Shown: piece after piece, positions 2,521-41,159 of the stretch
Numbering within the stretch: position 1 is the stretch's first letter
Layout: every line of letters starts with the position of its first letter
NCBI GenBank assembly: GCA_012521105.1
Contig: JAAYNA010000065.1
Span: 2,535 to 66,534 of the forward strand
Direction: 5' to 3'
Source of the DNA: Clostridiaceae bacterium
GTDB taxonomy: Bacteria; Bacillota; Clostridia; DSM-8532
DNA: 64,000 bases
Notes under the pieces: generated by a model
What the model was told of the DNA's origin: nothing
Seen by the model: only the letters and a program-made list of their open reading frames with translations
Databases searched by the model: none
Made by a program: the position numbers and the translations under genes

Positions 2521-3405
2521 CTAATTTCCTTTCATTATTCTTTTTGCTAATACTCCGGATAACCAGTTAAAGAAAAGAACCATAACCAGTAGTACCACCG
2601 CCGTTGCATAGGCCTGGTTTGTATAAAGCCCTTCGCTGGATAAAGCGTACATATGCAAAGACAAGGTTCGTGTGGAATCAAATAAAAAATCTTTTCCCGA
2701 AGGTATTTCTGCAACCGTACCGGCAGTATAAATTAAAGCAGCCGTTTCACCAACAATCCTCCCAATGGCAAGTATAATTCCTGACAGGATGCCTGGGAAT
2801 GCAGCGGGGAGGACAATACGGAAAACCGTTCTAAGCTTCCCGGCTCCCAAACTGAAACTGCCTTCACGATACGTGCTGGGTACCGCCTTCAAGGCTTCTT
2901 CGGTGGTGCGCATAATCAGCGGAAGCACCATAATAGAGACGGTAAAGGCTCCTGATATAAGCGAAATTCCCCATTTTAAGGTTGTAACAAAAAATAAAAA
3001 GCCAAAAAGGCCATAGACAATGGACGGAATACCCGACAAAGTTTCGGCAGTTACCCGTATAATCCCTACCAATTTATTGTCACTTTTTGTGTACTCCACC
3101 AGATAAATTGCAGTAAATACTCCAAAAGGAACGGCAATTATCAGCGATAAAAACACCATTAGTATGGTATTAATCAAAGCCGGCATAAGAGAAACATTTG
3201 TCGAGTTATACTCCCATTCAAATAAATTGATGCTTATATGCGGGATGCCATTTATTAATATATACCCTATAATGAATAACAGAATAAAAAATGTGATACA
3301 GGCAGACACCGTAACAAGGAGGGAGAGTACCAATGACAGGGGACTTCTTTTATAAGAAAGAAATTTTGATTTCAGAACTTTAAATTTATTCCCGTTTTTT
3401 TTCAT
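2521..3405 (-). CDS. pstA: Phosphate ABC transporter permease
   Basis: Hydrophobic; [21 protein letters not shown]...[18 protein letters not shown]. Confidence 0.93.
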
Positions 3406-10868: not shown

Positions 10869-11180
10869 TTTAAATTTTTAAATATGAGTAAAGCTGGATT
10901 GTGTTGTAACTGGATGCACATAATATTAATGTCTTATATCAGGTAACATATACTATTTGAAGAATTATATAAATACGTTGACATAAATATACATCTTGAA
11001 GAAATTCTGTTGAAACATGAAACATATTACTATACAATATCAACAAATACTTAATGTGGTAATATTTGCAAACTTACATTTAATTGTACTTAATTGTTAT
11101 CTACCAGACACTCCTAATTACTCCGTATTTTATGCATTTAAAGAGAAACCATAATAAAGCTTAATAATAACAAAATAGAA

Positions 11181-11819
11181 ATGGAGTTGATTTTTATGCA
11201 AAAATTAAAATTAAGACTAACCATTATACTTATATTTACTATTATTTCAACTTTGTTACCGATTAATTCTTTTGCCTACGATTACAGTATAAGAGAACAC
11301 AGTGGTTATTCTTATGATTTTGAAGGTTTAAGTCTGTATCAGGAAGCATTCAATAATTTGGTTTCTGTATCCGAATTTGTATACAGTGAAGCTGAAAATG
11401 CCATTATAAGTACATATTTTGAAAAAATACTGGATTTGGAGAATGAACAGGAATTAAAAAAAATTGATTCATTACTGAAGGATTTTATAAACGATTTAAA
11501 AAATATTGAAAGAAGTGAATTTTCCGGGTTAAACCAAAATTGCAGTATTAAAATAACAGATAAGATAAGTAGTTTATTAGATGAATTCAAATCCGAAATG
11601 GAAAACCAGTATTCTATTTCGTGGAACTGGAATGAATCAGATAAACTGTTTGCTATTAAACAAAAGCTTGGTATATATGCAGGTTTGATAATTTATTCCG
11701 ACAGATATGACGAGAATATAACAGCATTGCTTAACCGTGCTATAGAAAAATTTGTCGAGAAAAGGCATTACTGGAATTCAAGAGGGATTACAGGGAAAAA
11801 GGGTATGATATTGATGTAA
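11181..11819 (+). CDS. Hypothetical secreted protein
   Basis: Signal-peptide-like N-terminus (KLKLRLTIILIFTIISTLLPINSFA); helical, AT-rich; no family recognised. Confidence 0.6.
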   Translation: MELIFMQKLKLRLTIILIFTIISTLLPINSFAYDYSIREHSGYSYDFEGLSLYQEAFNNLVSVSEFVYSEAENAIISTYFEKILDLENEQELKKIDSLLKDFINDLKNIERSEFSGLNQNCSIKITDKISSLLDEFKSEMENQYSISWNWNESDKLFAIKQKLGIYAGLIIYSDRYDENITALLNRAIEKFVEKRHYWNSRGITGKKGMILM

Positions 11820-23512: not shown

Positions 23513-24703
23513 TTATGTTCTGTACGCACTGTTGATTTTAACATAATCATATGAAAAATCGCATGTCCACATTATATCTTCAGAATTCCCCATCTTCAAA
23601 TCCACTGTAATTTTTACCTCGTCCTGCTTTAAAATCTCAAGAGCTTTATCTTCATCAAAGCTAAGACCTACACCGTTTTTACATACCAGCAGATCTCCTA
23701 TGAAAATGTCGATCATATCCTGATTAAACACAGCTCCTGAATAGCCTGCTGCGGTAAGTATCCTTCCCCAGTTTGCATCATGCCCGAACATAGCTGTTTT
23801 CACCAGTGGAGATTTTGCAATTGAGCTAGATATTTTATGAGCAGTATCGTTATCGGGAGCATTTTTGACATGAATTTCAATTAGTTTTGTCGCACCCTCT
23901 CCGTCTTTTGCCAGCATCCTGGAAAGTGATACTGAAATTTTCTCCAAAGCAGCGACAAAAGTTTCATAATCCTCGTTTTCCTGTGTTATTTTTTTGTTTG
24001 CTGCTTTGCCGTTAGCCAAAATAATTACCATATCGCAAACGCTTGTATCGCCATCGACAGAGATACGATTGAAGGATTTATTAACTACTGCTATAAGAGC
24101 ATTTTGAAGCATTTCCTGTGAAATGAAAGCGTCTGTAAGTAATACTCCTATCATAGTTGCCATATTCGGATGGATCATCCCTGAACCTTTCGCCATACCG
24201 TAAAGGGTAACTTTCTTTCCGGATAAACTTATATCAATGGATACCTCTTTTGGGAATGTATCGGTTGTCATAATTGCACAGGCGGCATCCTTTGAATTGC
24301 CTGAACCTAATTGGCTGAAAGCTTCATAAAGCCCTGATTCTATCTTCTCCATTGGCAGGGGAAAGCCTATAACGCCCGTAGAACCAAGCAGTACCTGGCA
24401 TTTATCACAGCCTGCATGTTTTGAGGTAATATCTGCAATCCGTTCAGCGTCCCTGTCACCTTTTGAACCGATACATGCATTAGCATTCCCACTATTGATT
24501 ACAACAGCCTTTATTTTATTGTTTTTAACTTTATCCATGGTCCATTTAAGGGAATGACCTTTGACCTGATTTTTTGTAAACACTCCGGCAGCTTCGGCCA
24601 GAGAATCAGAAACAATCAGTGCCAGATCCTTTTTGTCGTTTTTCTTTATTCCGCAGGCAACCCCTGCAGTTTTAAACCCTAATGGTATTCTGATTTCACT
24701 CAT
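23513..24703 (-). CDS. argJ: Bifunctional ornithine acetyltransferase / N-acetylglutamate synthase
   Basis: NSGNANAC, AIMTTDT, KGSGMIHPNMATM, DGDTS, DGEGATK. ATG at 24703 after GGAGG. Confidence 0.96.
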   Translation of the reverse strand: MSEIRIPLGFKTAGVACGIKKNDKKDLALIVSDSLAEAAGVFTKNQVKGHSLKWTMDKVKNNKIKAVVINSGNANACIGSKGDRDAERIADITSKHAGCDKCQVLLGSTGVIGFPLPMEKIESGLYEAFSQLGSGNSKDAACAIMTTDTFPKEVSIDISLSGKKVTLYGMAKGSGMIHPNMATMIGVLLTDAFISQEMLQNALIAVVNKSFNRISVDGDTSVCDMVIILANGKAANKKITQENEDYETFVAALEKISVSLSRMLAKDGEGATKLIEIHVKNAPDNDTAHKISSSIAKSPLVKTAMFGHDANWGRILTAAGYSGAVFNQDMIDIFIGDLLVCKNGVGLSFDEDKALEILKQDEVKITVDLKMGNSEDIMWTCDFSYDYVKINSAYRT

Positions 24704-24715
24704 ATAATCCTCCAC

Positions 24716-24883: not shown

Positions 24884-25708
24884 ATGGGTAATTATTTTGA
24901 TAAGTTAAAACAAGCTGCGGATTATATACGTCAAAAAATTCACAAAACACCTTATATAGCTATCGTTTTGGGTTCAGGTTTAGGAAATCTTGCAAATTAT
25001 ATGTCTAACACTATTGAAATCCCTTATGAAGAAATACCCAATTTTCCGAGGACCACTGTCATAGGCCACGACGGACGGTTAATTTTCGGTGAGCTGGGTG
25101 GAAGAGACATAGTTGCTATGAAAGGCAGGTTCCATTATTACGAAGGATGGGACATGGAAGAGGTTGTATTTCCAATTCGTATTTTTAAGTTGCTTGGTGT
25201 GAACAATTTGCTTTTAACAAATGCTGCAGGCGGTGTTAATACACAGTTTAAGCCCGGAGACTTAATGCTTATAAAGGATCATATCGGATTTTTTGCTGAG
25301 AATCCATTAAGAGGGGAAAATATAGATGAGCTGGGTCCGCGTTTCCCCGATATGTCCCAAATCTATGACAGGGAACTTGTAGAAATGGCTGCAGAATGTG
25401 CAATACGTCTTCGCTGCGACATAAGAAGGGGTATTTATGCCTATACGAAAGGCCCTTCCTTTGAAACACCGTCAGAAATAAGAGCTCTTAAATACTTCGG
25501 TGCGGATGCCGTAGGCATGTCAACAGTACCCGAAGCAATAGCAGCAAGACATATGAGCATGAATGTTTTGGGAATATCATGTATAACAAATATGGCAGCC
25601 GGAGTTCTTGAGCAAACTTTAAATCATGAAGAGGTTATTGAAGCTGGGAAAAAAGTTGAAGGGAAGTTTGCAGCTCTTGTATCGGAGATTGTAAAGTCAT
25701 GGCCCTGA
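24884..25708 (+). CDS. punA: Purine nucleoside phosphorylase I (trimeric type)
   Basis: LGSGLG, GRFHYYEG, LTNAAGG, GPSFETPSE, GADAVGMSTVPE, CITNMAAG. Confidence 0.95.
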   Translation: MGNYFDKLKQAADYIRQKIHKTPYIAIVLGSGLGNLANYMSNTIEIPYEEIPNFPRTTVIGHDGRLIFGELGGRDIVAMKGRFHYYEGWDMEEVVFPIRIFKLLGVNNLLLTNAAGGVNTQFKPGDLMLIKDHIGFFAENPLRGENIDELGPRFPDMSQIYDRELVEMAAECAIRLRCDIRRGIYAYTKGPSFETPSEIRALKYFGADAVGMSTVPEAIAARHMSMNVLGISCITNMAAGVLEQTLNHEEVIEAGKKVEGKFAALVSEIVKSWP

Positions 25709-32325: not shown

Positions 32326-33084
32326 ATGAGGAGTATACTTATGATAGATCAACCCGGATTTGTATCTGAAATATTATTCAATACGAAAACAAACCATTTG
32401 AATCGATATCCTTACAATCTTTATGTTTTAAAAAATTTAAAATCTTTAGCTTTAGATGACAAAGTAACTTTTATTGTCGGAGAAAATGGAACGGGAAAAT
32501 CTACATTAATTGAAGCGATTGCAATTGCATATGGATTTAACGCGGAAGGCGGCTCAATTAATATTAATTTTTCAACTCGTTTTTCATCATCCGACCTTTA
32601 TAAAAGCATACAAATCAAAAAAACCTTAAATCGACCTAAAGATGGGTATTTTTTAAGAGCCGAAAGCTTTTTCAATGTTGCAACAAACATTGAGGAATTG
32701 GATGCTATACCAGCAACGGCAAAAAAATAATCGAATCATATGGCGGAAAATCACTTCATGAACAGTCACATGGAGAATCATTCCTTTCACTTTTCTTGAA
32801 CAGGTTCAGAGGGAATGGGTTTTACATTTTAGATGAACCGGAAGCTGCTCTTTCGGTACAAAGCAATTAACATTCGTTGCCCGTATGCACGAACTGGTCA
32901 AAAAAACTCTCAGTTTTTGATAGCGACTCATTCCCCGATTATATTATCTTATCAGAATTCGACAATATATGAAATTGGAGAATGCGGCTTAAATACGATA
33001 AAATATGAGAATACTGAGCAGTTCAAATTCATGAAATTATTTATAAGCAATTATCCCCGTATCCTTAAAAGAATAATGGATTGA
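32326..33084 (+). pseudogene. AAA/ABC-type ATPase (COG3910-like) with three -1 frameshifts
   Basis: GENGTGKST, FLRAESFF, then (shifted) SLHEQSHGESF...ILDEPEAALS, then SQFLIATHSPII. Breaks near 32727, 32863 and about 32900. Confidence 0.85.
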
Positions 33085-33094
33085 GGGTTTAGGT

Positions 33095-34015
33095 GTGGAT
33101 ATAATACATTATCTTTAACTAAACAAACCTGGTATTTTCTTAGACATTGAGTTAATTGCTCGGGGGCATACTTACCATCTAAAAAGCCGAAGGATTAATA
33201 AAGCGATAAAACATGTAAGAAAGTGAGTTTCAATTTTATGTTCCAAGCTAACGAAAACAGGTCTGCTCAAGGTCACTTTTTGTAATTCTAAAACTATGTT
33301 CAATCTCCCAAAGCCCGTGATAAGCCTTGACAACTTCATGGTCAGGCATATCTAATTCGCTGGTTATAATCGCATAGTAACCATCATACTTTTCGTCTTC
33401 AACAATCTTTTCCATATCTAAATATGTGACATGCTTAGTAGTTATAAACTCACCAGTTTATGGATCGTATTCAATGTTCTTTACATATCGTAATGCCCCA
33501 CCTACTTCTTTTTATCATAAAGTTTAGGATTCTGTATGATTTTTTGAGCTTTAGCAATAAGCTCTGCTCGCTTATGCTTTTGACGTCTGGCATAAAGCTC
33601 GTTGTAGCAAACAATTTGTTTAACATCTAAGGGAATTCTACGCTTAATATCGTCTGAATATGTTACCCACAATTCCTGCCGATAGATCCTGGATTTCATG
33701 CGAAAGACAGGTTTATCCTGATTGCCATCTTTTTCATTCCATAAGTCAGCCTGCTGCACAATTCCTCGTTCTTCTGCATAGCCCTCTGGATCAAAAACAT
33801 ATGATTGGAGGTCTTGAGAAGCTCCTCGTATTTTTTGTGAAAAGATAATTCCGCCTCCTTTTGACATTAGGAATACAACGTTATCACCACTATTCAAAGC
33901 CTTATCTGCAACAGTAATAATTCTGCCCGGCCCATAGTCAGCACATGTTTTTTGTAGTAGAGGCATCATCGTTTGGCTATCATGTGTATTTTCTTTAAAA
34001 AGGCGATAGATTGTC
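33095..34015 (-). mobile_element. IS1634-family transposase remnant
   Basis: YRLFKENTHDSQTMMP, VADKALNSGDN, SQKIRG, KQIVCYNELYARRQKHKR, then (shifted) DGYYAIITSELD, YHGLWEIEHSFRITKSDLE, HFLTCFIALLILRL. Multiple stops and no 5' half. Confidence 0.88.
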
Positions 34016-34191
34016 TTGCTTGTTGGTATTATTCAACTGCTAAACTGGCGACTATAAACGATGGTTCACTGAAAATAAAATGACATTAACTGAATTTAGC
34101 TGCAAATTTTCTTGAATGAACCTGGCTTCAAATGATATAATAGTTACTCAAAAGGTAAAAGAATATTTAATAATAATGGAGAATTAGAAAC

Positions 34192-35433
34192 ATGAAAAGT
34201 ATTATTCGAGATATAAATTTAGCCCCAACGGGCAGGCAGAAAATTGAATGGGCAAAAAGAAATATGCCTATTTTAAGTAGTATGGAAGAAGAATTTAAAA
34301 AAACACGCCCCTTTGAAGGGATAAAAATATCACTTTCAATTCACCTTGAAGCAAAAACAGCCTATCTTTCGAAAGTGCTTGCAGCAGGTGGCGCCATAAT
34401 GGCGGTTACCGGAAGCAATCCTCTTTCAACACAGGATGATGTTGCAGCAGCTCTTGCAGAAGACGGCATAAGCGTTTATTCATGGTACGATGCTACCCCT
34501 GAAGAATATGATCATTTTATTGATGAAACACTAAGTCACGGCCCACATATAGTCATTGACGACGGCGGTGACTTAACTTATGCCCTTCATACAAGGAAAA
34601 AAGAATTGCTTTCCGGAATATACGGGGGATGCGAGGAAACCACCACTGGCATACTGCGCCTTAAGGCAATGGAAAAGGAAGGAACCTTGCAAATTCCAAT
34701 GATGGCAGTTAATGATGCCATGTGTAAACACCTGTTTGACAACCGCTATGGAACAGGTCAATCGGTATGGGACGGGATTAACAGAACAACCAACCTGGTA
34801 GTGGCAGGCAAAACCGTTGTAGTAGCGGGTTATGGCTGGTGCGGCAAGGGTGTCGCAATGAGAGCGAAGGGGTTGGGTGCAAAGGTTATTGTTACAGAAG
34901 TGGATCCTGTTAAAGCTATTGAGGCTGTTATGGATGGATTTTCGGTTATGACGATGGATGAGGCGGCTGAATTGGGTGATATTTTTATTACCGTAACAGG
35001 GTGCAATAAAGTGATTGTAAAAAGACATTTTCAGAAAATGAAAGATGGCGCAGTGCTATGTAATGCCGGGCATTTTAACGTTGAAATCTGCATCCCTGAA
35101 CTGGAGGAGTTAAGCAGTAATATACATGAATCACGCAAAAATATAGCATGCTATGAAATGGATAATGGTAAAAAGCTCTACCTCCTTGGAGAAGGAAGGC
35201 TTGTTAACCTGGCATGCGGTGATGGCCACCCTGCTGAAATTATGGACATGAGTTTTGCAGTGCAGGCTTATGCTGCACTATACATTTTAAATAACCATTC
35301 GGAGCTTAAACCGGGAGTTTTCGAAATACCTGACGAAATTGACAGGAAAATTGCAATGATGAAACTGCAAAGTCTTGGCATCAATATAGATGAACTTACC
35401 GAAGAACAGAAAAATTATATAAACAGTTGGTAG
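34192..35433 (+). CDS. ahcY: Adenosylhomocysteinase (SAH hydrolase)
   Basis: SNPLSTQDD, DDGGDL, EETTTG, KHLFDNRYGTGQS, GYGWCGKG, GRLVNLACGDGHP. Confidence 0.97.
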   Translation: MKSIIRDINLAPTGRQKIEWAKRNMPILSSMEEEFKKTRPFEGIKISLSIHLEAKTAYLSKVLAAGGAIMAVTGSNPLSTQDDVAAALAEDGISVYSWYDATPEEYDHFIDETLSHGPHIVIDDGGDLTYALHTRKKELLSGIYGGCEETTTGILRLKAMEKEGTLQIPMMAVNDAMCKHLFDNRYGTGQSVWDGINRTTNLVVAGKTVVVAGYGWCGKGVAMRAKGLGAKVIVTEVDPVKAIEAVMDGFSVMTMDEAAELGDIFITVTGCNKVIVKRHFQKMKDGAVLCNAGHFNVEICIPELEELSSNIHESRKNIACYEMDNGKKLYLLGEGRLVNLACGDGHPAEIMDMSFAVQAYAALYILNNHSELKPGVFEIPDEIDRKIAMMKLQSLGINIDELTEEQKNYINSW

Positions 35434-35523
35434 TTATTGCCGGATGAGCTGAAACCTGCGTAATACCTGACATTCGGAGAGGGGATAATCTTTCAGTATG
35501 TTGACACAGAACCTGTTTTATAT

Positions 35524-36345
35524 ATGAAAGGTGCGGTTTTGTTGGAAAAAGAAATTCTTAACATGGAAGAAGCAGCAGAATTGTTTGGTGTAAGTATAAA
35601 AACCTTTATAAAACTTTTACGGGAGGAAGATGTACCTGCAAGAAAAATAGGCCGGGAATGGAGGTTCTCAAAACAGGCATTGATCGATTGGCTGGCAAAG
35701 GGAAGTTCAAAAATGTATTCATCCAGCGAGCAGGAGGTCAGACAGTTTTTTGAGAAAATAGCTGATAAATGGGAGGAAATAAGTTCTGGAATCTATGATC
35801 ACTCAATTATTAACAAATTAATTGATTTCGGCCTTTTGAATAAAGATATGACAGTTTTGGATTATGGTTCGGGTGACGGTTTTATTTCCAGGGGTATAGC
35901 CTCTCATACAGGCAAAATTATTGCCATGGATATGTCAGTATCCATGCTGGACGAGTTGGACAGAAAGGCAAAGCAACAGGGCATTACAAATATACTGACC
36001 GTAGAATGTGAAGAAAGTGAAGTTCCGCTTAGAGACAGCAGGGTTGACATGGTTTGTGCATCTATGATTTTGCATCATATTAAATTTCCTGATGATATTG
36101 TGCAGGAATTCTACCGTGTGCTAAGACCAAAAGGTGTTTTGTTCATTGCTGATCTCTTGCCCCATAATGATGAAGAATTTCAAATAAGTATGCATGACTA
36201 CCACAGGGGCATAAATCCTGTTGCTCTTGAACAATGGCTTTCAGATACAGGATTTTGTAATATTAACATTGAAAAACTGCCCGATATAGGTAAAGGGAAA
36301 AAGAATATATTTGTGTTAACAGCAGTAAAGGCAGAACAGGTATAA
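35524..36345 (+). CDS. Excisionase-type HTH (HTH_17) fused to a class I SAM-methyltransferase-like domain; putative regulator (start may be the TTG at 35539 or 35542)
   Basis: N-terminal ILNMEEAAELFGVSIKTFIKLLREEDVPARKIGREWRFSKQALIDWL; C-terminal VLDYGSGDG, MDMSVSML, ASMILHH, RVLRPKG. Confidence 0.85.
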   Translation: MKGAVLLEKEILNMEEAAELFGVSIKTFIKLLREEDVPARKIGREWRFSKQALIDWLAKGSSKMYSSSEQEVRQFFEKIADKWEEISSGIYDHSIINKLIDFGLLNKDMTVLDYGSGDGFISRGIASHTGKIIAMDMSVSMLDELDRKAKQQGITNILTVECEESEVPLRDSRVDMVCASMILHHIKFPDDIVQEFYRVLRPKGVLFIADLLPHNDEEFQISMHDYHRGINPVALEQWLSDTGFCNINIEKLPDIGKGKKNIFVLTAVKAEQV

Positions 36346-36511
36346 GTGCCACCTTCAAACAGGGATAATGGTATTTTCGGGAAAAAAGATAAGCATAAGC
36401 TTTTGAATATTGAGAAAATTTAAGAATTATTTGAGTATTATAAGGAACAATATAAAGGGTTATAATTTAATAAGGCTGCAGGATGTTTATCATTAACTTA
36501 ACCTAAGCTCT

Positions 36512-37186
36512 GTGGTTTTGAAAATTTATATTATGCCAGCATGGAGACCAACTAATGTGATGAATTATTTTGAAAAATTTACAGACCATTTGCTATTTGA
36601 TGAAGAACCCTCGATATATTTCAGAGAAATTGATAATGAAGATTTTTTTAATAAAGATTATCCTTTTACGCTGCTTAGCCAGTTAAAGCAAACAGAGCAG
36701 AACCCTAAATGGCACCCTGAAGGCAATGTGTGGAATCATACTCTGAATGTAATTGATAACGGTGCACTGGTAAGGGATAAAAGCGACGATGAAATGGTAT
36801 TTATGTGGTCGTGCTTGTTGCATGATATTGGAAAGCCTTCGACAACTAAGGTAAGAAGGGGAAAAATAACAGCTTATGACCATGATAAAGCAGGTGAGAA
36901 ATTATCTATTGAATTCCTAAGTGCTTTTAATTGTGATAATGAGTTTATATATAAAGTTTCAAAAATGGTACGATGGCATATGCAGGTATTAATGGTAATT
37001 AAAAACTTAACCTTTGCCGATATAGAAACAATGGTAAAGGAAGTGTCTGTTCATGAAATTGCATTGCTTGCTATGTGTGACAGGTTAGGCCGCGGAAAAG
37101 TAACAGACAGGGTAATATCCGAAGAAAAAAAGAATATGCAGTATTTCCTGAAAAAATGCATGCCTTATATTAATTCTCTGAATTAA
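36512..37186 (+). CDS. Stand-alone HD-domain phosphohydrolase (CCA-adding-enzyme-like HD)
   Basis: QNPKWHPEGNVWNHT, LLHDIGKP, VRWHM and CDRLGR. The true start is probably the ATG at 36527 or later. Confidence 0.8.
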   Translation: MVLKIYIMPAWRPTNVMNYFEKFTDHLLFDEEPSIYFREIDNEDFFNKDYPFTLLSQLKQTEQNPKWHPEGNVWNHTLNVIDNGALVRDKSDDEMVFMWSCLLHDIGKPSTTKVRRGKITAYDHDKAGEKLSIEFLSAFNCDNEFIYKVSKMVRWHMQVLMVIKNLTFADIETMVKEVSVHEIALLAMCDRLGRGKVTDRVISEEKKNMQYFLKKCMPYINSLN

Positions 37187-37311
37187 ACATGTTGTGCTGA
37201 AATTAACGGCTGCCTTCAAGAAATAAACTTGCTGCCAGGATCATATCCTGATTAAGGCCAGGTTGAGTTTAGCACAACCTGTAAATTCATATTTTGTTTG
37301 GGGGTATTGTA

Positions 37312-39666
37312 ATGCAGTATGGTTATTTTGATCAAAAGGCCCGTGAATATGTTATTACAAGACCTGATACTCCAACACCCTGGATAAATTACATAGGAAG
37401 CGGGAAATACGGAGGCATTGTTTCTAACACCGGAGGCGGCTACAGTTTTCACACCGATCCACGAAACAGAAGAATTACAAGGTACAGGTACAATAATATC
37501 CCAATGGACAGGCCAGGAAGGTACATCTATATCCGCGACAGAGTGACTGGTGAGTACTGGAATCCCGGTTTCCAGCCGGTACAGAGAAAACTTGATTCAT
37601 ACAGGTGCAGGCATGGAATGGGCTATACTGTTCTAGAGGGAGAATATAAACAAATTGCAGCCGATGTAACCTACTTTGTGCCTGACGACAAAGATTTTGA
37701 AATCTGGCTTGTACATATCAAAAACCTTGGTCAAATAGAAAGAAAACTTCAGGTATTCAGCTATGCTGAATTCTGTTTCTGGGATGCTGTAAAAGATCAA
37801 CAGAATGTTGACTGGGTTCAACAGATAAATCAGGGAAGGTATGAGGATAAAGTTATAACCTGGCATCCCCATCACTTCAATGAAGAATGTACTTTTTTTG
37901 CCACAAATGAGGAAATAAACAGCTTTGACACAAATCTTGAATCCTTCATCGGCAGATACCGCTGTGAAGCAAATCCTGTTGCCGTTGAAATGGGCGGATG
38001 CTCCAATTCAATATCATACAGAATGAATGGCGTAGGAGCCTTCTGTATTGACCTGAATCTGTCTGCCGGAGAAGAACGGGACATAATATTTATTCTAGGC
38101 TTTACCGAAAACAAAAAAGCAATAAGGGATGAGATAAAAAAGTACCTGAATGTAAGTTACGTAAAGGAAGCCCTTGAAAGGTTAAAGTATTCATGGGACA
38201 AATACCTGGATAAGCTTTATATTGAAACTCCTGATGATGAGATGGACCTGTTTGTGAATACCTGGAATCAGTATCAATGCAAAATAACCTTCAACTGGTC
38301 AAGGTTTGTATCCCTTTACCAGCTTGGTATAGGAAGAGGTATGGGAACACGGGACAGCGCACAGGATACCCTTGGCGTAATGCATTCGATACCTTACCAG
38401 GCAAGTGAGCTTATTAAAAAATTATTACATTGCCAGTATACCGACGGACGCATTTATCATCTGTTTTTCCCATTGACTGGCGAAGGAGGTGTTGGTGATG
38501 CACCTGTAATGAAATTCGACTGGTACTCCGATGATCATCTTTGGCTTCCTCTTGCAGTTAACTCGTATTTAAAGGAAACAGGTAATTTTGAATTTTTAAA
38601 CAGTATTGTTTTATACAATGACAATAAAACCGAAGGTACAGTCTGGGAACACCTGGACAGGGCACTGGATTTCACATATCATCATCGCGGGCCTCATGGC
38701 CTCGCTCTTGCCGGCAGGGCTGACTGGAACGACACCCTGAATCTGGATGTTGGAAATGGGATTGCAGAAAGTGTTTTTACTTCAATGCTGTTTTGCAAAG
38801 CTGTCCTTGAGATGATTCAGATATCTGAATTTTTAAAGGATGAAGACAGTGCACTAAAATACAGGAACATGTATGAAGAAATGAAAAAAGCCATAAATGA
38901 GTCGTGCTGGGACGGGGATTGGTACATAAGGGCATTTGATGATGAAGGAAAGGTGCTTGGCTCAAGGGAGAATGAGTACGGAAAGATATTTATCAACAGT
39001 CAGTCATGGTCTGTACTTAGTCTTGTGGCTCCTGAAGAATACGCAAAGAAATGCCTGGAGTCGGTATATGAGCACTTAAATACAAAATATGGAATTGTAA
39101 AGGTGTACCCAGGATACCCCGAATATGATCCGACTAAAGGCGGAATAACAACATTTCCGCCCGGAACAAAGGAAAATGGCGGTATCTTCTTGCATACAAA
39201 TCCATGGGTTATGATTGCAGAATGCATTTTGGGCAACGGAAACAGGGCCTACCAGTACTACACAGAGATACTTCCTGCAAGGCGCAATAATGATGCCGAG
39301 ATACTGGAAGTTGAACCATATGTGTATTGTCAGAATGTTCTCGGAAAGGAACATCCCCAATTTGGAACGGGCAGAAATTCATGGCTTACTGGTACGGCTG
39401 CCTGGAATATGGTTGCAGTAAGCCAGTATATATTGGGAATAAGGCCCGAGTATGAAAGCTTAACTGTGGATCCGTGTATACCTTCCGGATGGAAAGGTTT
39501 TAAGGCAAGAAGGAAGTTCAGGGGCTGTACTTACAATATAGAAGTGAAAAATCCTGAAGGGGTATGCAAGGGTGTTAAAAAAATAATTGTAGATGGCGAT
39601 GAAACCGACAAAATCCCTGTAAAGCCCGAAGGAACGGTTTGTGATTGCATAGTTATAATGGGTTAA
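37312..39666 (+). CDS. GH94 glycoside phosphorylase (cellodextrin/cellobiose/chitobiose phosphorylase family; by recollection most like clostridial cellodextrin phosphorylase CepB)
   Basis: MQYGYFDQKAREYVITRPDTPTPWINYIG, GRGMGTRDSAQD, ADWNDTL, KENGGIFLHTNPW, SWLTGTAAW. Substrate not determinable from sequence alone. Confidence 0.9.
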   Translation: MQYGYFDQKAREYVITRPDTPTPWINYIGSGKYGGIVSNTGGGYSFHTDPRNRRITRYRYNNIPMDRPGRYIYIRDRVTGEYWNPGFQPVQRKLDSYRCRHGMGYTVLEGEYKQIAADVTYFVPDDKDFEIWLVHIKNLGQIERKLQVFSYAEFCFWDAVKDQQNVDWVQQINQGRYEDKVITWHPHHFNEECTFFATNEEINSFDTNLESFIGRYRCEANPVAVEMGGCSNSISYRMNGVGAFCIDLNLSAGEERDIIFILGFTENKKAIRDEIKKYLNVSYVKEALERLKYSWDKYLDKLYIETPDDEMDLFVNTWNQYQCKITFNWSRFVSLYQLGIGRGMGTRDSAQDTLGVMHSIPYQASELIKKLLHCQYTDGRIYHLFFPLTGEGGVGDAPVMKFDWYSDDHLWLPLAVNSYLKETGNFEFLNSIVLYNDNKTEGTVWEHLDRALDFTYHHRGPHGLALAGRADWNDTLNLDVGNGIAESVFTSMLFCKAVLEMIQISEFLKDEDSALKYRNMYEEMKKAINESCWDGDWYIRAFDDEGKVLGSRENEYGKIFINSQSWSVLSLVAPEEYAKKCLESVYEHLNTKYGIVKVYPGYPEYDPTKGGITTFPPGTKENGGIFLHTNPWVMIAECILGNGNRAYQYYTEILPARRNNDAEILEVEPYVYCQNVLGKEHPQFGTGRNSWLTGTAAWNMVAVSQYILGIRPEYESLTVDPCIPSGWKGFKARRKFRGCTYNIEVKNPEGVCKGVKKIIVDGDETDKIPVKPEGTVCDCIVIMG

Positions 39667-39863: not shown

Positions 39864-41159
39864 GTGTTTCAGGTGAGGAGGATTTATTTTTTAATTCCAG
39901 TTTTGATTTTTATATTAATTTTTTCAGCGTGTGCGCATTCTATTGCCCATTCACCGATTTTAAAAGACAAAGACCATTCTGACGTACCGGAAACTGAAGC
40001 CCCTGAAAACAGCCTTAACAGAAAAGAATCCGGAGCAGCCGGTGAAAAAGACATCGGGCTGATCGATGCAAACAAAAGATTTGCATGGGACCTTTTTAAA
40101 AAAATTAATGAAGAGGATTCAGACAAAGAAATTTTCATGTCTCCCTTTTCGGTCTCAGGCATGCTTATGATGGCTTATAACGGTGCTGAAGGCTCAACAA
40201 GGGATGCTATGGCTAGAGCAATGCACTATGAAGGGTTATCGATTGATGACCTGAATGAGGGATATAAGTATTTAATCAGCCGGTTAAACAATTTGGATGA
40301 AAAGGTGAAAATAGAAATTGCAAACTCGATATGGTCAAGAAAAGGGTTTGAAATAAAGCAAAACTTTATAGATATCAACAAAAGCTATCTTTTCTCTGAC
40401 GTGGAAAGCCTTGACTTTGCAAACCCCGAATCGGCCAATGTTATAAATAACTGGGTTTCTAAAAAGACCAATAATCTTATACCTTCCATCATTGACCCTC
40501 CAATTGCAGATGATGTTATGATGTATCTTATAAACGCCATATATTTTAACGGTGAATGGACAGAAGCCTTTAAGGTGAAAAACACTTTTGAAACCGATTT
40601 TTATTCCTATGACCGAAAGACAGACAAGGTACAAATGATGCAAAAGAATGGCAATGCGGATTTGTCTGAATCGGATGAATACAGGGCGGCAAGCCTTACC
40701 TATGGCAATGGGAAAGCTGCTATGATGGTAATTCTTCCGAATAAAGACATTAATGAATTTATCAAAAACTTTGATCATAAAAAGTGGGATGAGATTGTTG
40801 AAAATTTAAGGCCGGTCAGAAATGTGAACCTGCAGCTTCCAAAATTCAAAATAGAATATGGTATTAAGGAACTGAACAACTCCTTGGCTTCCCTTGGAAT
40901 GGAAGTAATTTTTTCAGAACGTGCCGATTTCAGCGGTATATCAGAGAATCTGTTTATTAACAGGGTTCTTCACAAAGCTGTTTTAGACGTGAACGAGGAG
41001 GGAACAGAGGCTGCTGCCGTAACAGTGGGTGAAGTAATGAAAACTTCATATTCCGAGCCGATAAAATTTATAGCCAACAAACCATTCTTATTCGTAATCT
41101 ACGACACCGAAGACGGGAACATACTTTTTGCAGGTAAAAAACTGTTTGGCGACAGGTAG
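39864..41159 (+). CDS. Serpin (serine protease inhibitor) lipoprotein
   Basis: Lipobox FSAC; IFMSPFS, INNWVSKKTNNLI, LINAIYFNGEW, hinge EEGTEAAAVT, FIANKPFLF. Confidence 0.95.
   Translation: MFQVRRIYFLIPVLIFILIFSACAHSIAHSPILKDKDHSDVPETEAPENSLNRKESGAAGEKDIGLIDANKRFAWDLFKKINEEDSDKEIFMSPFSVSGMLMMAYNGAEGSTRDAMARAMHYEGLSIDDLNEGYKYLISRLNNLDEKVKIEIANSIWSRKGFEIKQNFIDINKSYLFSDVESLDFANPESANVINNWVSKKTNNLIPSIIDPPIADDVMMYLINAIYFNGEWTEAFKVKNTFETDFYSYDRKTDKVQMMQKNGNADLSESDEYRAASLTYGNGKAAMMVILPNKDINEFIKNFDHKKWDEIVENLRPVRNVNLQLPKFKIEYGIKELNNSLASLGMEVIFSERADFSGISENLFINRVLHKAVLDVNEEGTEAAAVTVGEVMKTSYSEPIKFIANKPFLFVIYDTEDGNILFAGKKLFGDR

Follow-up and report, generated by a model that had tools for sequence, protein, structure and literature searches.

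We analysed a stretch of 64,000 nucleotides (the window) from a Clostridiaceae bacterium (assembly GCA_012521105.1, contig JAAYNA010000065.1, positions 2,535 to 66,534 of the forward strand), an uncultured relative of Thermoclostridium from biogas, compost and digester metagenomes. In this window, ahcY, the gene for S-adenosylhomocysteine (SAH) hydrolase, is followed by a gene whose product joins an excisionase/MerR-like winged helix-turn-helix (HTH) domain, HTH_17, to a methyltransferase (MT)-like module. Judging from sequence and gene-neighbourhood comparisons, this HTH-MT protein is probably the transcription factor of a regulon made up of ahcY and salvage genes, and an array of phased direct repeats that abuts the ahcY promoter is its candidate operator. 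It is apparently an undescribed one-component regulator of the SAH cycle, in which both the DNA-binding module and the predicted way of binding are new, in a phylum new to such regulators. SAH is a toxic by-product of methylation and a potent inhibitor of all methylation dependent on S-adenosylmethionine (SAM), and SAH sensing in Firmicutes has so far been explained mainly by riboswitches.

Results

Architecture of the HTH-MT protein

The open reading frame (ORF) of the HTH-MT protein (35524-36345) begins 90 bases 3′ of ahcY on the same strand, and no terminator-like site was found between the two genes. Translation likely starts at the TTG codon rather than at the ATG that opens the ORF, because the database copy of the protein has 268 residues, its homologues begin with M-[ED]-KEILNM, and the ribosome-binding site GAAAGGTG lies 4 nt upstream of the TTG (Table 1). 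A candidate internal promoter before the gene (TTGACA at 35501) was rejected, as it is not conserved in the related loci L001 and L002. Both genes are partly covered by metatranscriptome contigs, at low depth and with the transcript ends not shown. The product of ahcY matched the Pfam domains AdoHcyase and AdoHcyase_NAD.

The HTH part of the protein, which also matches TIGR01764 ‘excise’ (34.8 bits against a cutoff of 28.8), is followed by a disordered linker (YSSSE). HTH_17 (PF12728) was the only HTH domain found, and an HTH of the ArsR/SmtB type (HTH_5/HTH_20; PF01022/PF12840) was not detected in the protein. The module that follows matches Methyltransf_11 with 67.5 bits (cutoff 21.2) and carries the features of a class I SAM-dependent MT fold, namely motif I (DxGxGxG; here DYGSGDG, at 35860-35880), the acidic residue after strand beta-2 and the motif IV region. 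Residues D108 to G114 (D108xGxGxG114), D131, the MxLHH segment (M176-L178-H179-H180) and MHD..G are invariant in the family alignment. Because the SAM-binding motifs are intact, ligand binding is expected. An AlphaFold2 model (pLDDT, the model's confidence score, 86) comprises a winged helix at residues 5-53 (helix-helix-beta hairpin-helix), a disordered linker and a Rossmann MT fold; its best Foldseek matches are class I MTs (E 1e-15). Sequence and fold searches of the PDB returned generic class I small-molecule MTs only, and no HTH-fused structure was found.

The family is unevenly conserved, with a mean pairwise identity of 86% in the HTH, 56% in the MT core and 42% in the C-terminal part. 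A near-invariant HTH beside a variable MT core is what one would expect of a factor whose operator is fixed. No curated family names the protein: NCBIfam gave domain-level or below-cutoff matches only, the best similarity being to arsenite methyltransferase (below cutoff), and the HTH of MADS1 was matched weakly (28.8 bits; cutoff 80). Relatives are annotated at source as ‘methyltransferase domain-containing protein’ or ‘excisionase family DNA binding protein’. An earlier reading of this DNA, made by a model from the letters and their translations (the sequence-only reading), had described the same ORF as an HTH joined to a SAM-binding fold; its coordinates and the peptides it quoted (FFEKIADKWEE, LDYGSGDG, MILHH, ADLLPH and WL..TGF) are all found in the translation.

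Linkage to ahcY and to salvage genes

The database holds 374 close relatives of the protein, and 236 species genomes encode one. All of the titled loci sampled were from Clostridia, mostly as metagenome-assembled genomes (MAGs); the named hosts are Thermoclostridium, Ruminiclostridium, Pseudobacteroides cellulosolvens, Herbivorax and Acetivibrio alkalicellulosi. The orthologue of Thermoclostridium stercorarium (P0011) is 79% identical to the window protein. An ahcY gene lies on the same strand within 5 kb of the regulator gene in 62 of 81 non-redundant loci. When neighbours were counted in the 58 loci with at least 2.5 kb of flank on each side, a same-strand ahcY was at most two genes away in 49, ahcY or an MtaD-like gene was equally close in 56, and any of five salvage genes was near in 57. 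The association with ahcY that the sequence-only reading had proposed is thus well supported by these counts; a link to metK or metE, genes that it had suggested including in a survey, was not seen.

Relatives with 68-87% identity keep the order ahcY-regulator, the operon in the window's clade opening with ahcY, and most of those with 47-55% identity have the order regulator-(PfkB kinase)-ahcY. Because the linkage was kept despite this swap in gene order, it appears to have been selected rather than inherited as synteny, which indicates a functional tie to the disposal of SAH and adenosine. At loci without ahcY, what usually comes after the regulator gene is a nucleoside-kinase-like gene of the PfkB family, an MtaD/TRZ-ATZ amidohydrolase gene, or both; the MtaD/TRZ-ATZ matches fall below the equivalog cutoffs, and the group takes in deaminases of methylthioadenosine (MTA)/SAH and of 5′-deoxyadenosine. 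A purine nucleoside phosphorylase gene (PNP; NF006054, 381 bits) often lies 5′ of the regulator gene, and deoC is nearby. The regulon found is one of SAH and adenosine salvage: ahcY, PNP, the PfkB kinase and the MtaD-like deaminase. No integrase or defence partners were found near the HTH-MT gene, and motifs of DNA methyltransferases are absent from its MT.

A phased direct-repeat array at the promoter

A phylogenetic footprint of the regions upstream of 11 close and 49 distant loci revealed boxes of consensus TGAAtATAAt, four of which lie in the window. Directly 5′ of the -35 element, the conserved block in the window's clade is ACTGAATaTAatTGtAaAttttC, running into TTGAAt; in the distant clade it is gTGAATATAAtTGAAAATAAcTG, running into TTGATAAT, followed by about 17 nt and TATAAT. 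In the window's clade, TG dinucleotides recur in phase at -42/-21/-11 relative to the -35; in the distant clade, where the last box overlaps the -35, they do so at -54/-33/-22/-12/-2. The self-correlation of the motif's position weight matrix (PWM) was highest for a 10-bp shift (0.68; no other shift exceeded 0.39). In 732 kb of loci, scored on both strands, 55 of the 56 matches of at least 18 bits lay upstream of regulator, ahcY or PNP operons, and reversed or complemented control PWMs had no match. A two-box PWM derived from the distant loci only ranked the ahcY promoter (34080-34102; 15.8 bits) first among the approximately 128,000 positions of the window, both strands included.

The motif also occurs apart from the regulator gene. 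When 185,579 genomes were scanned with an exact degenerate pattern, 19 matches were obtained, 12 in Clostridia and 7 in unrelated phyla (Nitrospinota, Nitrosopumilus, Flavobacteriaceae and others), the latter being about what chance would yield. Ten of the clostridial matches are upstream of the regulator gene; another is 5′ of an ahcY gene that opposite-strand genes separate from the regulator by 2.5 kb (L101/L070), and the last precedes a PNP gene that lies in the same MAG but on another contig (L105). With a relaxed pattern in metagenomes, 104 of the 120 matches listed were chance matches without a -10, and those listed with a properly spaced TATAAT preceded the regulator (9), PNP (4) or ahcY (1), apart from one located at a contig end. 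One match, L152, was rejected as a motif site, being a chance match inside a coding region. On a metagenome contig (L188) the motif occurs twice, before PNP-ahcY and, at a distance of 6 kb, before the regulator and an MtaD-like gene; such an arrangement is the signature of a small, autoregulated regulon. The pair of ahcY and regulator in the window is most likely an autoregulated operon.

Promoter and leader of ahcY

The ahcY promoter matches the consensus at 10 of 12 positions and has the TG extension, and its -35 and -10 elements are kept in position in all relatives. Transcription is predicted to start at about 34148, giving a leader of about 45 nt. No Rfam family matched the whole window at the gathering score, the region around 33900-36600 gave noise only at E<=10, and nothing relevant to a riboswitch was found in 13 related loci; the statement in the sequence-only reading that ahcY has no SAM or SAH riboswitch upstream is in agreement with these searches.

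Two other elements had been proposed as operators; both are present in the sequence, and neither is kept in the closest relatives. The inverted repeat TTGAA-N10-TTCAA (34112-34131) consists of the -35 and part of the spacer and is not conserved as an operator would be: of the 11 closest loci, only about half have an inverted TTCA, with the spacing varying between 8 and 10, and neither the distant clade nor L022, the regulator of which is 87% identical, has one. The pattern occurs twice in the window against 0.26 expected, a figure for a spacing chosen after the fact. The heptamer GAACCTG was also put forward, on account of its copies upstream of both genes (34118-34124 and 35509-35515); the second copy is not conserved and the window has 16 copies, so a role as operator is not supported. 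Shuffled sequences led us to expect 5.4 copies, and none of 100 shuffles reached 16; this excess could come from codon or dipeptide bias.

Relatives of the MT module

A search with only the MT part of the protein (35722-36342) covered 1.84 billion representative proteins, and the best 150 were scanned with Pfam. Among these 150, 44 carry an ArsR HTH_5, that is, the architecture of SahR, 2 carry HTH_17, and at least 5 have regions 2 and 4 of a sigma factor of the extracytoplasmic function (ECF) type N-terminal to the module. SahR is an ArsR-family regulator that responds to SAH, binds a 20-bp palindromic operator and has ahcY, metF, metH and metK as its core regulon (PMC4239095); the sequence-only reading had erred in taking it for a sensor of SAM. 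In SahR, an ArsR-like HTH is joined to a SAM-dependent methyltransferase domain that is ArsM-like, and the SahR gene is frequently found together with ahcY (bioRxiv 10.1101/2022.10.17.512643).

We compared the window protein with one sampled ArsR fusion of this architecture, P0143. The gene for P0143 directly precedes an AdoHcyase gene, and another ArsR fusion is followed by an N-terminal fragment of ahcY (weak match). BLASTP aligned the window protein with P0143 at 29% identity over 224 residues (E 2e-32). The aligned stretch takes in the entire module, with the N-terminal helix (FF..IA..WEEI) at one end and the C-terminal GF at the other, and extends well beyond the generic SAM-binding motifs. 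On this alignment, the MT module is homologous to that of the proteins with the SahR architecture. Because the DNA-binding domain and the type of operator differ, the HTH-MT protein is an analogue of SahR and not a member of its family. The suggestion that a SahR-like sensor domain had been placed on a different DNA-binding module and tied to ahcY thus gains comparative support from the linkage (56 of 58 loci), the invariant HTH, the operon-specific motif and the ArsR-fused relatives.

The sigma-MT fusions include P0138, P0164, P0153, P0210 and P0215. In two of the three sampled, P0138 (L239) and P0164 (L242/L243), an AdoHcyase gene comes directly after the fusion; in the third it does not. 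The sigma fusions beside AdoHcyase suggest that the MT module is a portable SAH sensor, and the fusions may themselves be SAH-responsive sigma factors. Our literature searches, which did not extend to most subscription journals, found nothing on them, and they go unmentioned in a review of non-canonical ECF sigma factors. A stand-alone relative sits in an unrelated context; the locus L021, considered as a possible SahR, was rejected as a plain MT in an unrelated context.

Table 1. Positions of the features discussed (window coordinates, unless a locus is named)
Feature	Position	Strand	Remarks
Four phased direct-repeat boxes, about 10-11 bp each	34070..34111	+	Abut the -35; candidate operator of the HTH-MT protein
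Individual boxes	34070; 34081; 34091; 34101		TGAAAATAAA; TGACATTAAC; TGAATTTAGC; TGCAAATTTTC; -35 immediately after
Sigma-A-type promoter of the ahcY operon	34112..34141	+	-35 TTGAAT, 18-nt spacer, TG-extended -10 TATAAT
ahcY (SAH hydrolase)	34192..35433	+	NCBIfam NF004005, 683 bits (cutoff 275)
ahcY/HTH-MT intergenic region	35434..35538	+	Contains the ribosome-binding site GAAAGGTG and the second GAACCTG copy (35509-35515)
Ribosome-binding site GAAAGGTG	35527-35534	+	Precedes TTG 35539
Gene of the HTH_17 + MT-like protein	35539..36345	+	268 aa from TTG 35539 (likely start); ORF opens at ATG 35524
Excisionase/MerR-like winged HTH (HTH_17)	35557..35703	+	PF12728, aa 12-60, 45.5 bits (cutoff 27)
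MT-like SAM/SAH-binding module	35722..36330	+	Methyltransf_11/25/31, aa 106-212
Sigma-MT fusion loci	L239 2125-3871; L242 4001-6722; L243 1218-3939

Discussion

How might this protein act? We propose that its winged HTH would bind the phased repeats of about 10 bp (TGAAtATAAt) that abut and run into the -35, probably as a head-to-tail multimer, in the manner of BldC and of Xis-type winged HTH proteins, and that the MT-like module would serve as the ligand sensor. When SAH accumulates, it would bind the module and the protein would leave the DNA; this release would derepress ahcY and, in relatives, also the genes for the PfkB nucleoside kinase, the MtaD-like SAH/MTA deaminase and PNP. That the HTH-MT protein is what binds the box motif we infer from the association of the two. 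With a promoter so close to consensus and a last box that extends into the -35, we favour a repressor that would occupy the -35 and the DNA upstream of it; repression rather than activation, and SAH as the ligand, are nevertheless put forward less firmly than the assignment of the protein as a transcription factor.

Several observations weigh against this proposal. The best-conserved boxes lie 5′ of the -35 (at about -37 to -57 and further out), where the sites of activators are typically found as well. The motif is rich in A+T, and the PWM used with the 18-bit threshold was trained on the same upstream regions that were scored. With the PWM from distant loci, the runner-up in the window (11074; 15.2 bits) comes close to the ahcY site (15.8 bits); this match is probably due to chance. 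The PNP gene of the window has no boxes. The sequence-only reading had suggested motif discovery upstream of SAM-cycle genes; the array was found at ahcY, and none was found before metK, metH, metE or metF in genome-wide scans, which used strict exact patterns only. Moreover, the ligand could be SAM, MTA or adenosine rather than SAH, and catalysis by the module is conceivable, given that all of its SAM-binding motifs are intact and that no catalytic signature tells an enzyme from a sensor.

Two alternatives deserve most weight. The same protein might act on the same DNA by another logic, as a SAH-bound activator, with SAM as a MetJ-like co-repressor, or by sensing MTA or adenosine. The centring of the boxes 5′ of the -35 would suit such a system, as would the adenosine/inosine salvage genes in the regulon (PNP, the PfkB kinase, deoC nearby) and the precedent of SamR, the effector of which, unlike that of SahR (SAH), is not settled. 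We nevertheless regard it as rather unlikely, in that the near-consensus promoter (TTGATA or TTGAAT, TATAAT, TG extension) seems to make an activator unnecessary, the distant clade has its last box overlapping the -35, and SahR, the precedent with a homologous module, is SAH-responsive. Less probable again is that the protein is primarily an enzyme, either a methyltransferase that acts on small molecules or proteins or a bifunctional ‘trigger enzyme’, placed beside ahcY as a producer of SAH and using its HTH for dimerisation or in some secondary role. Against an enzyme stand an HTH far more conserved than the MT core, a specific cis-motif that accompanies the operons, the unrelated context of the stand-alone relative, and the fusion of the same module to ArsR HTHs and sigma factors beside ahcY, which an enzyme would hardly explain. 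In favour of an enzyme are the intact motif I, acidic residue and LHH segment, the closest NCBIfam similarity (to arsenite methyltransferase, below cutoff) and the nearest solved folds, which are genuine enzymes; some enzymes of the O-methyltransferase type (Rv2258c and others) dimerise through an N-terminal winged helix.

The array might also be the site of another regulator, or an UP-like element of the promoter, unrelated to the HTH-MT protein, since the assignment of motif to protein is based on co-localisation and co-occurrence and the motif is A+T-rich and promoter-proximal. This we consider very improbable in view of the invariant phased TG, the 10-bp periodicity and the lack of other matches in about 730 kb of flanking DNA; furthermore, all clostridial matches to the strict pattern are in genomes or contigs that carry the operons of the HTH-MT protein. 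Finally, an excisionase of a mobile element, or a part of a restriction-modification or defence system, might lie beside ahcY by chance. The ‘excisionase’ family match of HTH_17, the weak similarity to the MADS1 HTH and a possible transposase-like fragment upstream (33502-33969) would be explained in this way, but the chromosomal context is stable across 236 genomes, there are no integrase or defence partners, and the MT is of the small-molecule class I type without DNA-methyltransferase motifs. The conserved housekeeping context effectively refutes this explanation, to which we give hardly any credence.

A SAH-responsive HTH-MT repressor would resemble SahR and its distant homologue SamR in being a one-component protein with a winged HTH and an ArsM-like MT-like module that is encoded next to ahcY and has ahcY as a core target. 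The DNA-binding domain is ArsR in SahR and HTH_17 in the HTH-MT protein; the SahR operator is a 20-bp palindrome (20-24 bp in the family), whereas the candidate operator here is a phased direct-repeat array. SahR is found in Proteobacteria and the HTH-MT protein in Clostridia, and the SahR regulon includes metK, metH and metF, whereas only SAH and adenosine salvage genes were found in the present regulon. In its type of winged HTH (MerR/excisionase-like), the protein is closer to BldC and lambda Xis. BldC, a MerR/Xis-like winged HTH protein, forms head-to-tail multimers on direct repeats (PMC5859096), and its sites share with those predicted here the tandem arrangement, helical phasing (about 10 bp) and variable copy number. 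In contrast to the HTH-MT protein, BldC and Xis are single-domain proteins without a ligand-binding module. The logic by which a build-up of SAH turns on ahcY is shared with the SAH riboswitch and with McbR, the TetR-type SAH-responsive repressor of Corynebacterium, but their sensors, an RNA and a TetR ligand pocket, are unrelated to the MT-like module. MetJ is likewise a repressor of the methionine/SAM cycle that acts cooperatively on tandem short repeats and reads an adenosyl-sulfur metabolite; it is not homologous, having a ribbon-helix-helix fold, SAM as co-repressor and methionine biosynthesis genes as targets.

A full-text literature search found no description of the HTH_17-MT architecture, most subscription journals being outside its coverage. 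We tentatively extend the proposal, at somewhat less than even chances, to the view that the MT-like module is a portable sensor of SAH, and hence of methylation stress, plugged into at least three unrelated devices (the ArsR HTH of SahR, HTH_17 and the ECF-type sigma factor), each beside ahcY, and that the HTH_17 version is the first ligand-controlled direct-repeat binder of the BldC/Xis type, one in which SAH controls how a protein filament assembles at the promoter. If the proposal is correct, Clostridia of cellulolytic, biogas and compost communities (Thermoclostridium, Pseudobacteroides, Herbivorax, Acetivibrio), an industrially important group, switch in response to SAH by means of a protein; the sensor module of SahR would be modular, since it is also fused to sigma factors; and this would be a rare case in which a winged HTH of the Xis/BldC type could be ligand-controlled. 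The compact, predictable pair of promoter and operator might also serve as a biosensor of SAH or methylation stress for thermophilic Clostridia.

Additional observations

The runner-up box match at 11074-11104 (TTACATTTAATTGTACTTAATTGTTATCTAC) lies about 80 nt 5′ of an ORF (11181-11819) that encodes 212 residues with a signal-peptide-like N-terminus and no Pfam match. The PNP gene of the window (24884-25708), 9 kb from ahcY, adjoins argJ (23513-24715, minus strand) and has its own promoter, TTGACA-N17-GATAAT; the PNP gene of distant relatives has the motif or belongs to the operon.

Some relatives have other upstream arrangements. Leaders of 90-180 nt, compared with about 45 nt in the window, separate the same promoter from ahcY in L004, L024, L025, L027, L028 and L029, with no obvious mutual homology and no Rfam match. 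In distant homologues (L016, L065, L069, L072, L074, L082 and L084), the conserved promoter is separated from the regulator gene by leaders of 85-180 nt that open with a strong G+C hairpin and then a T-run (e.g., AGAGGACAA...TTGTCCTCTTTT), again with no Rfam match; they look like a leader terminator or a 5′ stabiliser, and the window has none. Approximately five tandem repeats of about 21 bp (GACCAAATGATATWCAGACC) lie between the conserved promoter and the regulator gene in L017 (about 3020-3190), and in L010/L037 three direct repeats of about 65 bp (GGAATGTCCCCTTT..GACGCTAAAGCAATATGGGACAC..) take the place of the box motif 5′ of the regulator gene. In L004, a related MAG, a match to the Rfam family of group II intron domain D1-D4-3 (1258-1382; 39.9 bits) lies about 2 kb upstream of ahcY.

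The region 5′ of ahcY in the window carries short ORFs (32326-33084 and 33502-33969, minus strand). Two short neighbouring ORFs there (134 and 83 residues) resemble the halves of one AAA/ABC-type ATPase, likely a disrupted gene, and an ORF of 155 residues without a Pfam match lies directly 5′ of the ahcY promoter. In relatives L023-L029 this region has a PNP-ThrE-like synteny, which is replaced in the window and in L022. Downstream of the HTH-MT gene are genes for an HD/HDIG-domain protein (36512-37186), a GH94 protein of the cellobiose/cellodextrin phosphorylase type (37294-39666) and a serpin (39864-41159), an order that is kept in L001 and L002.

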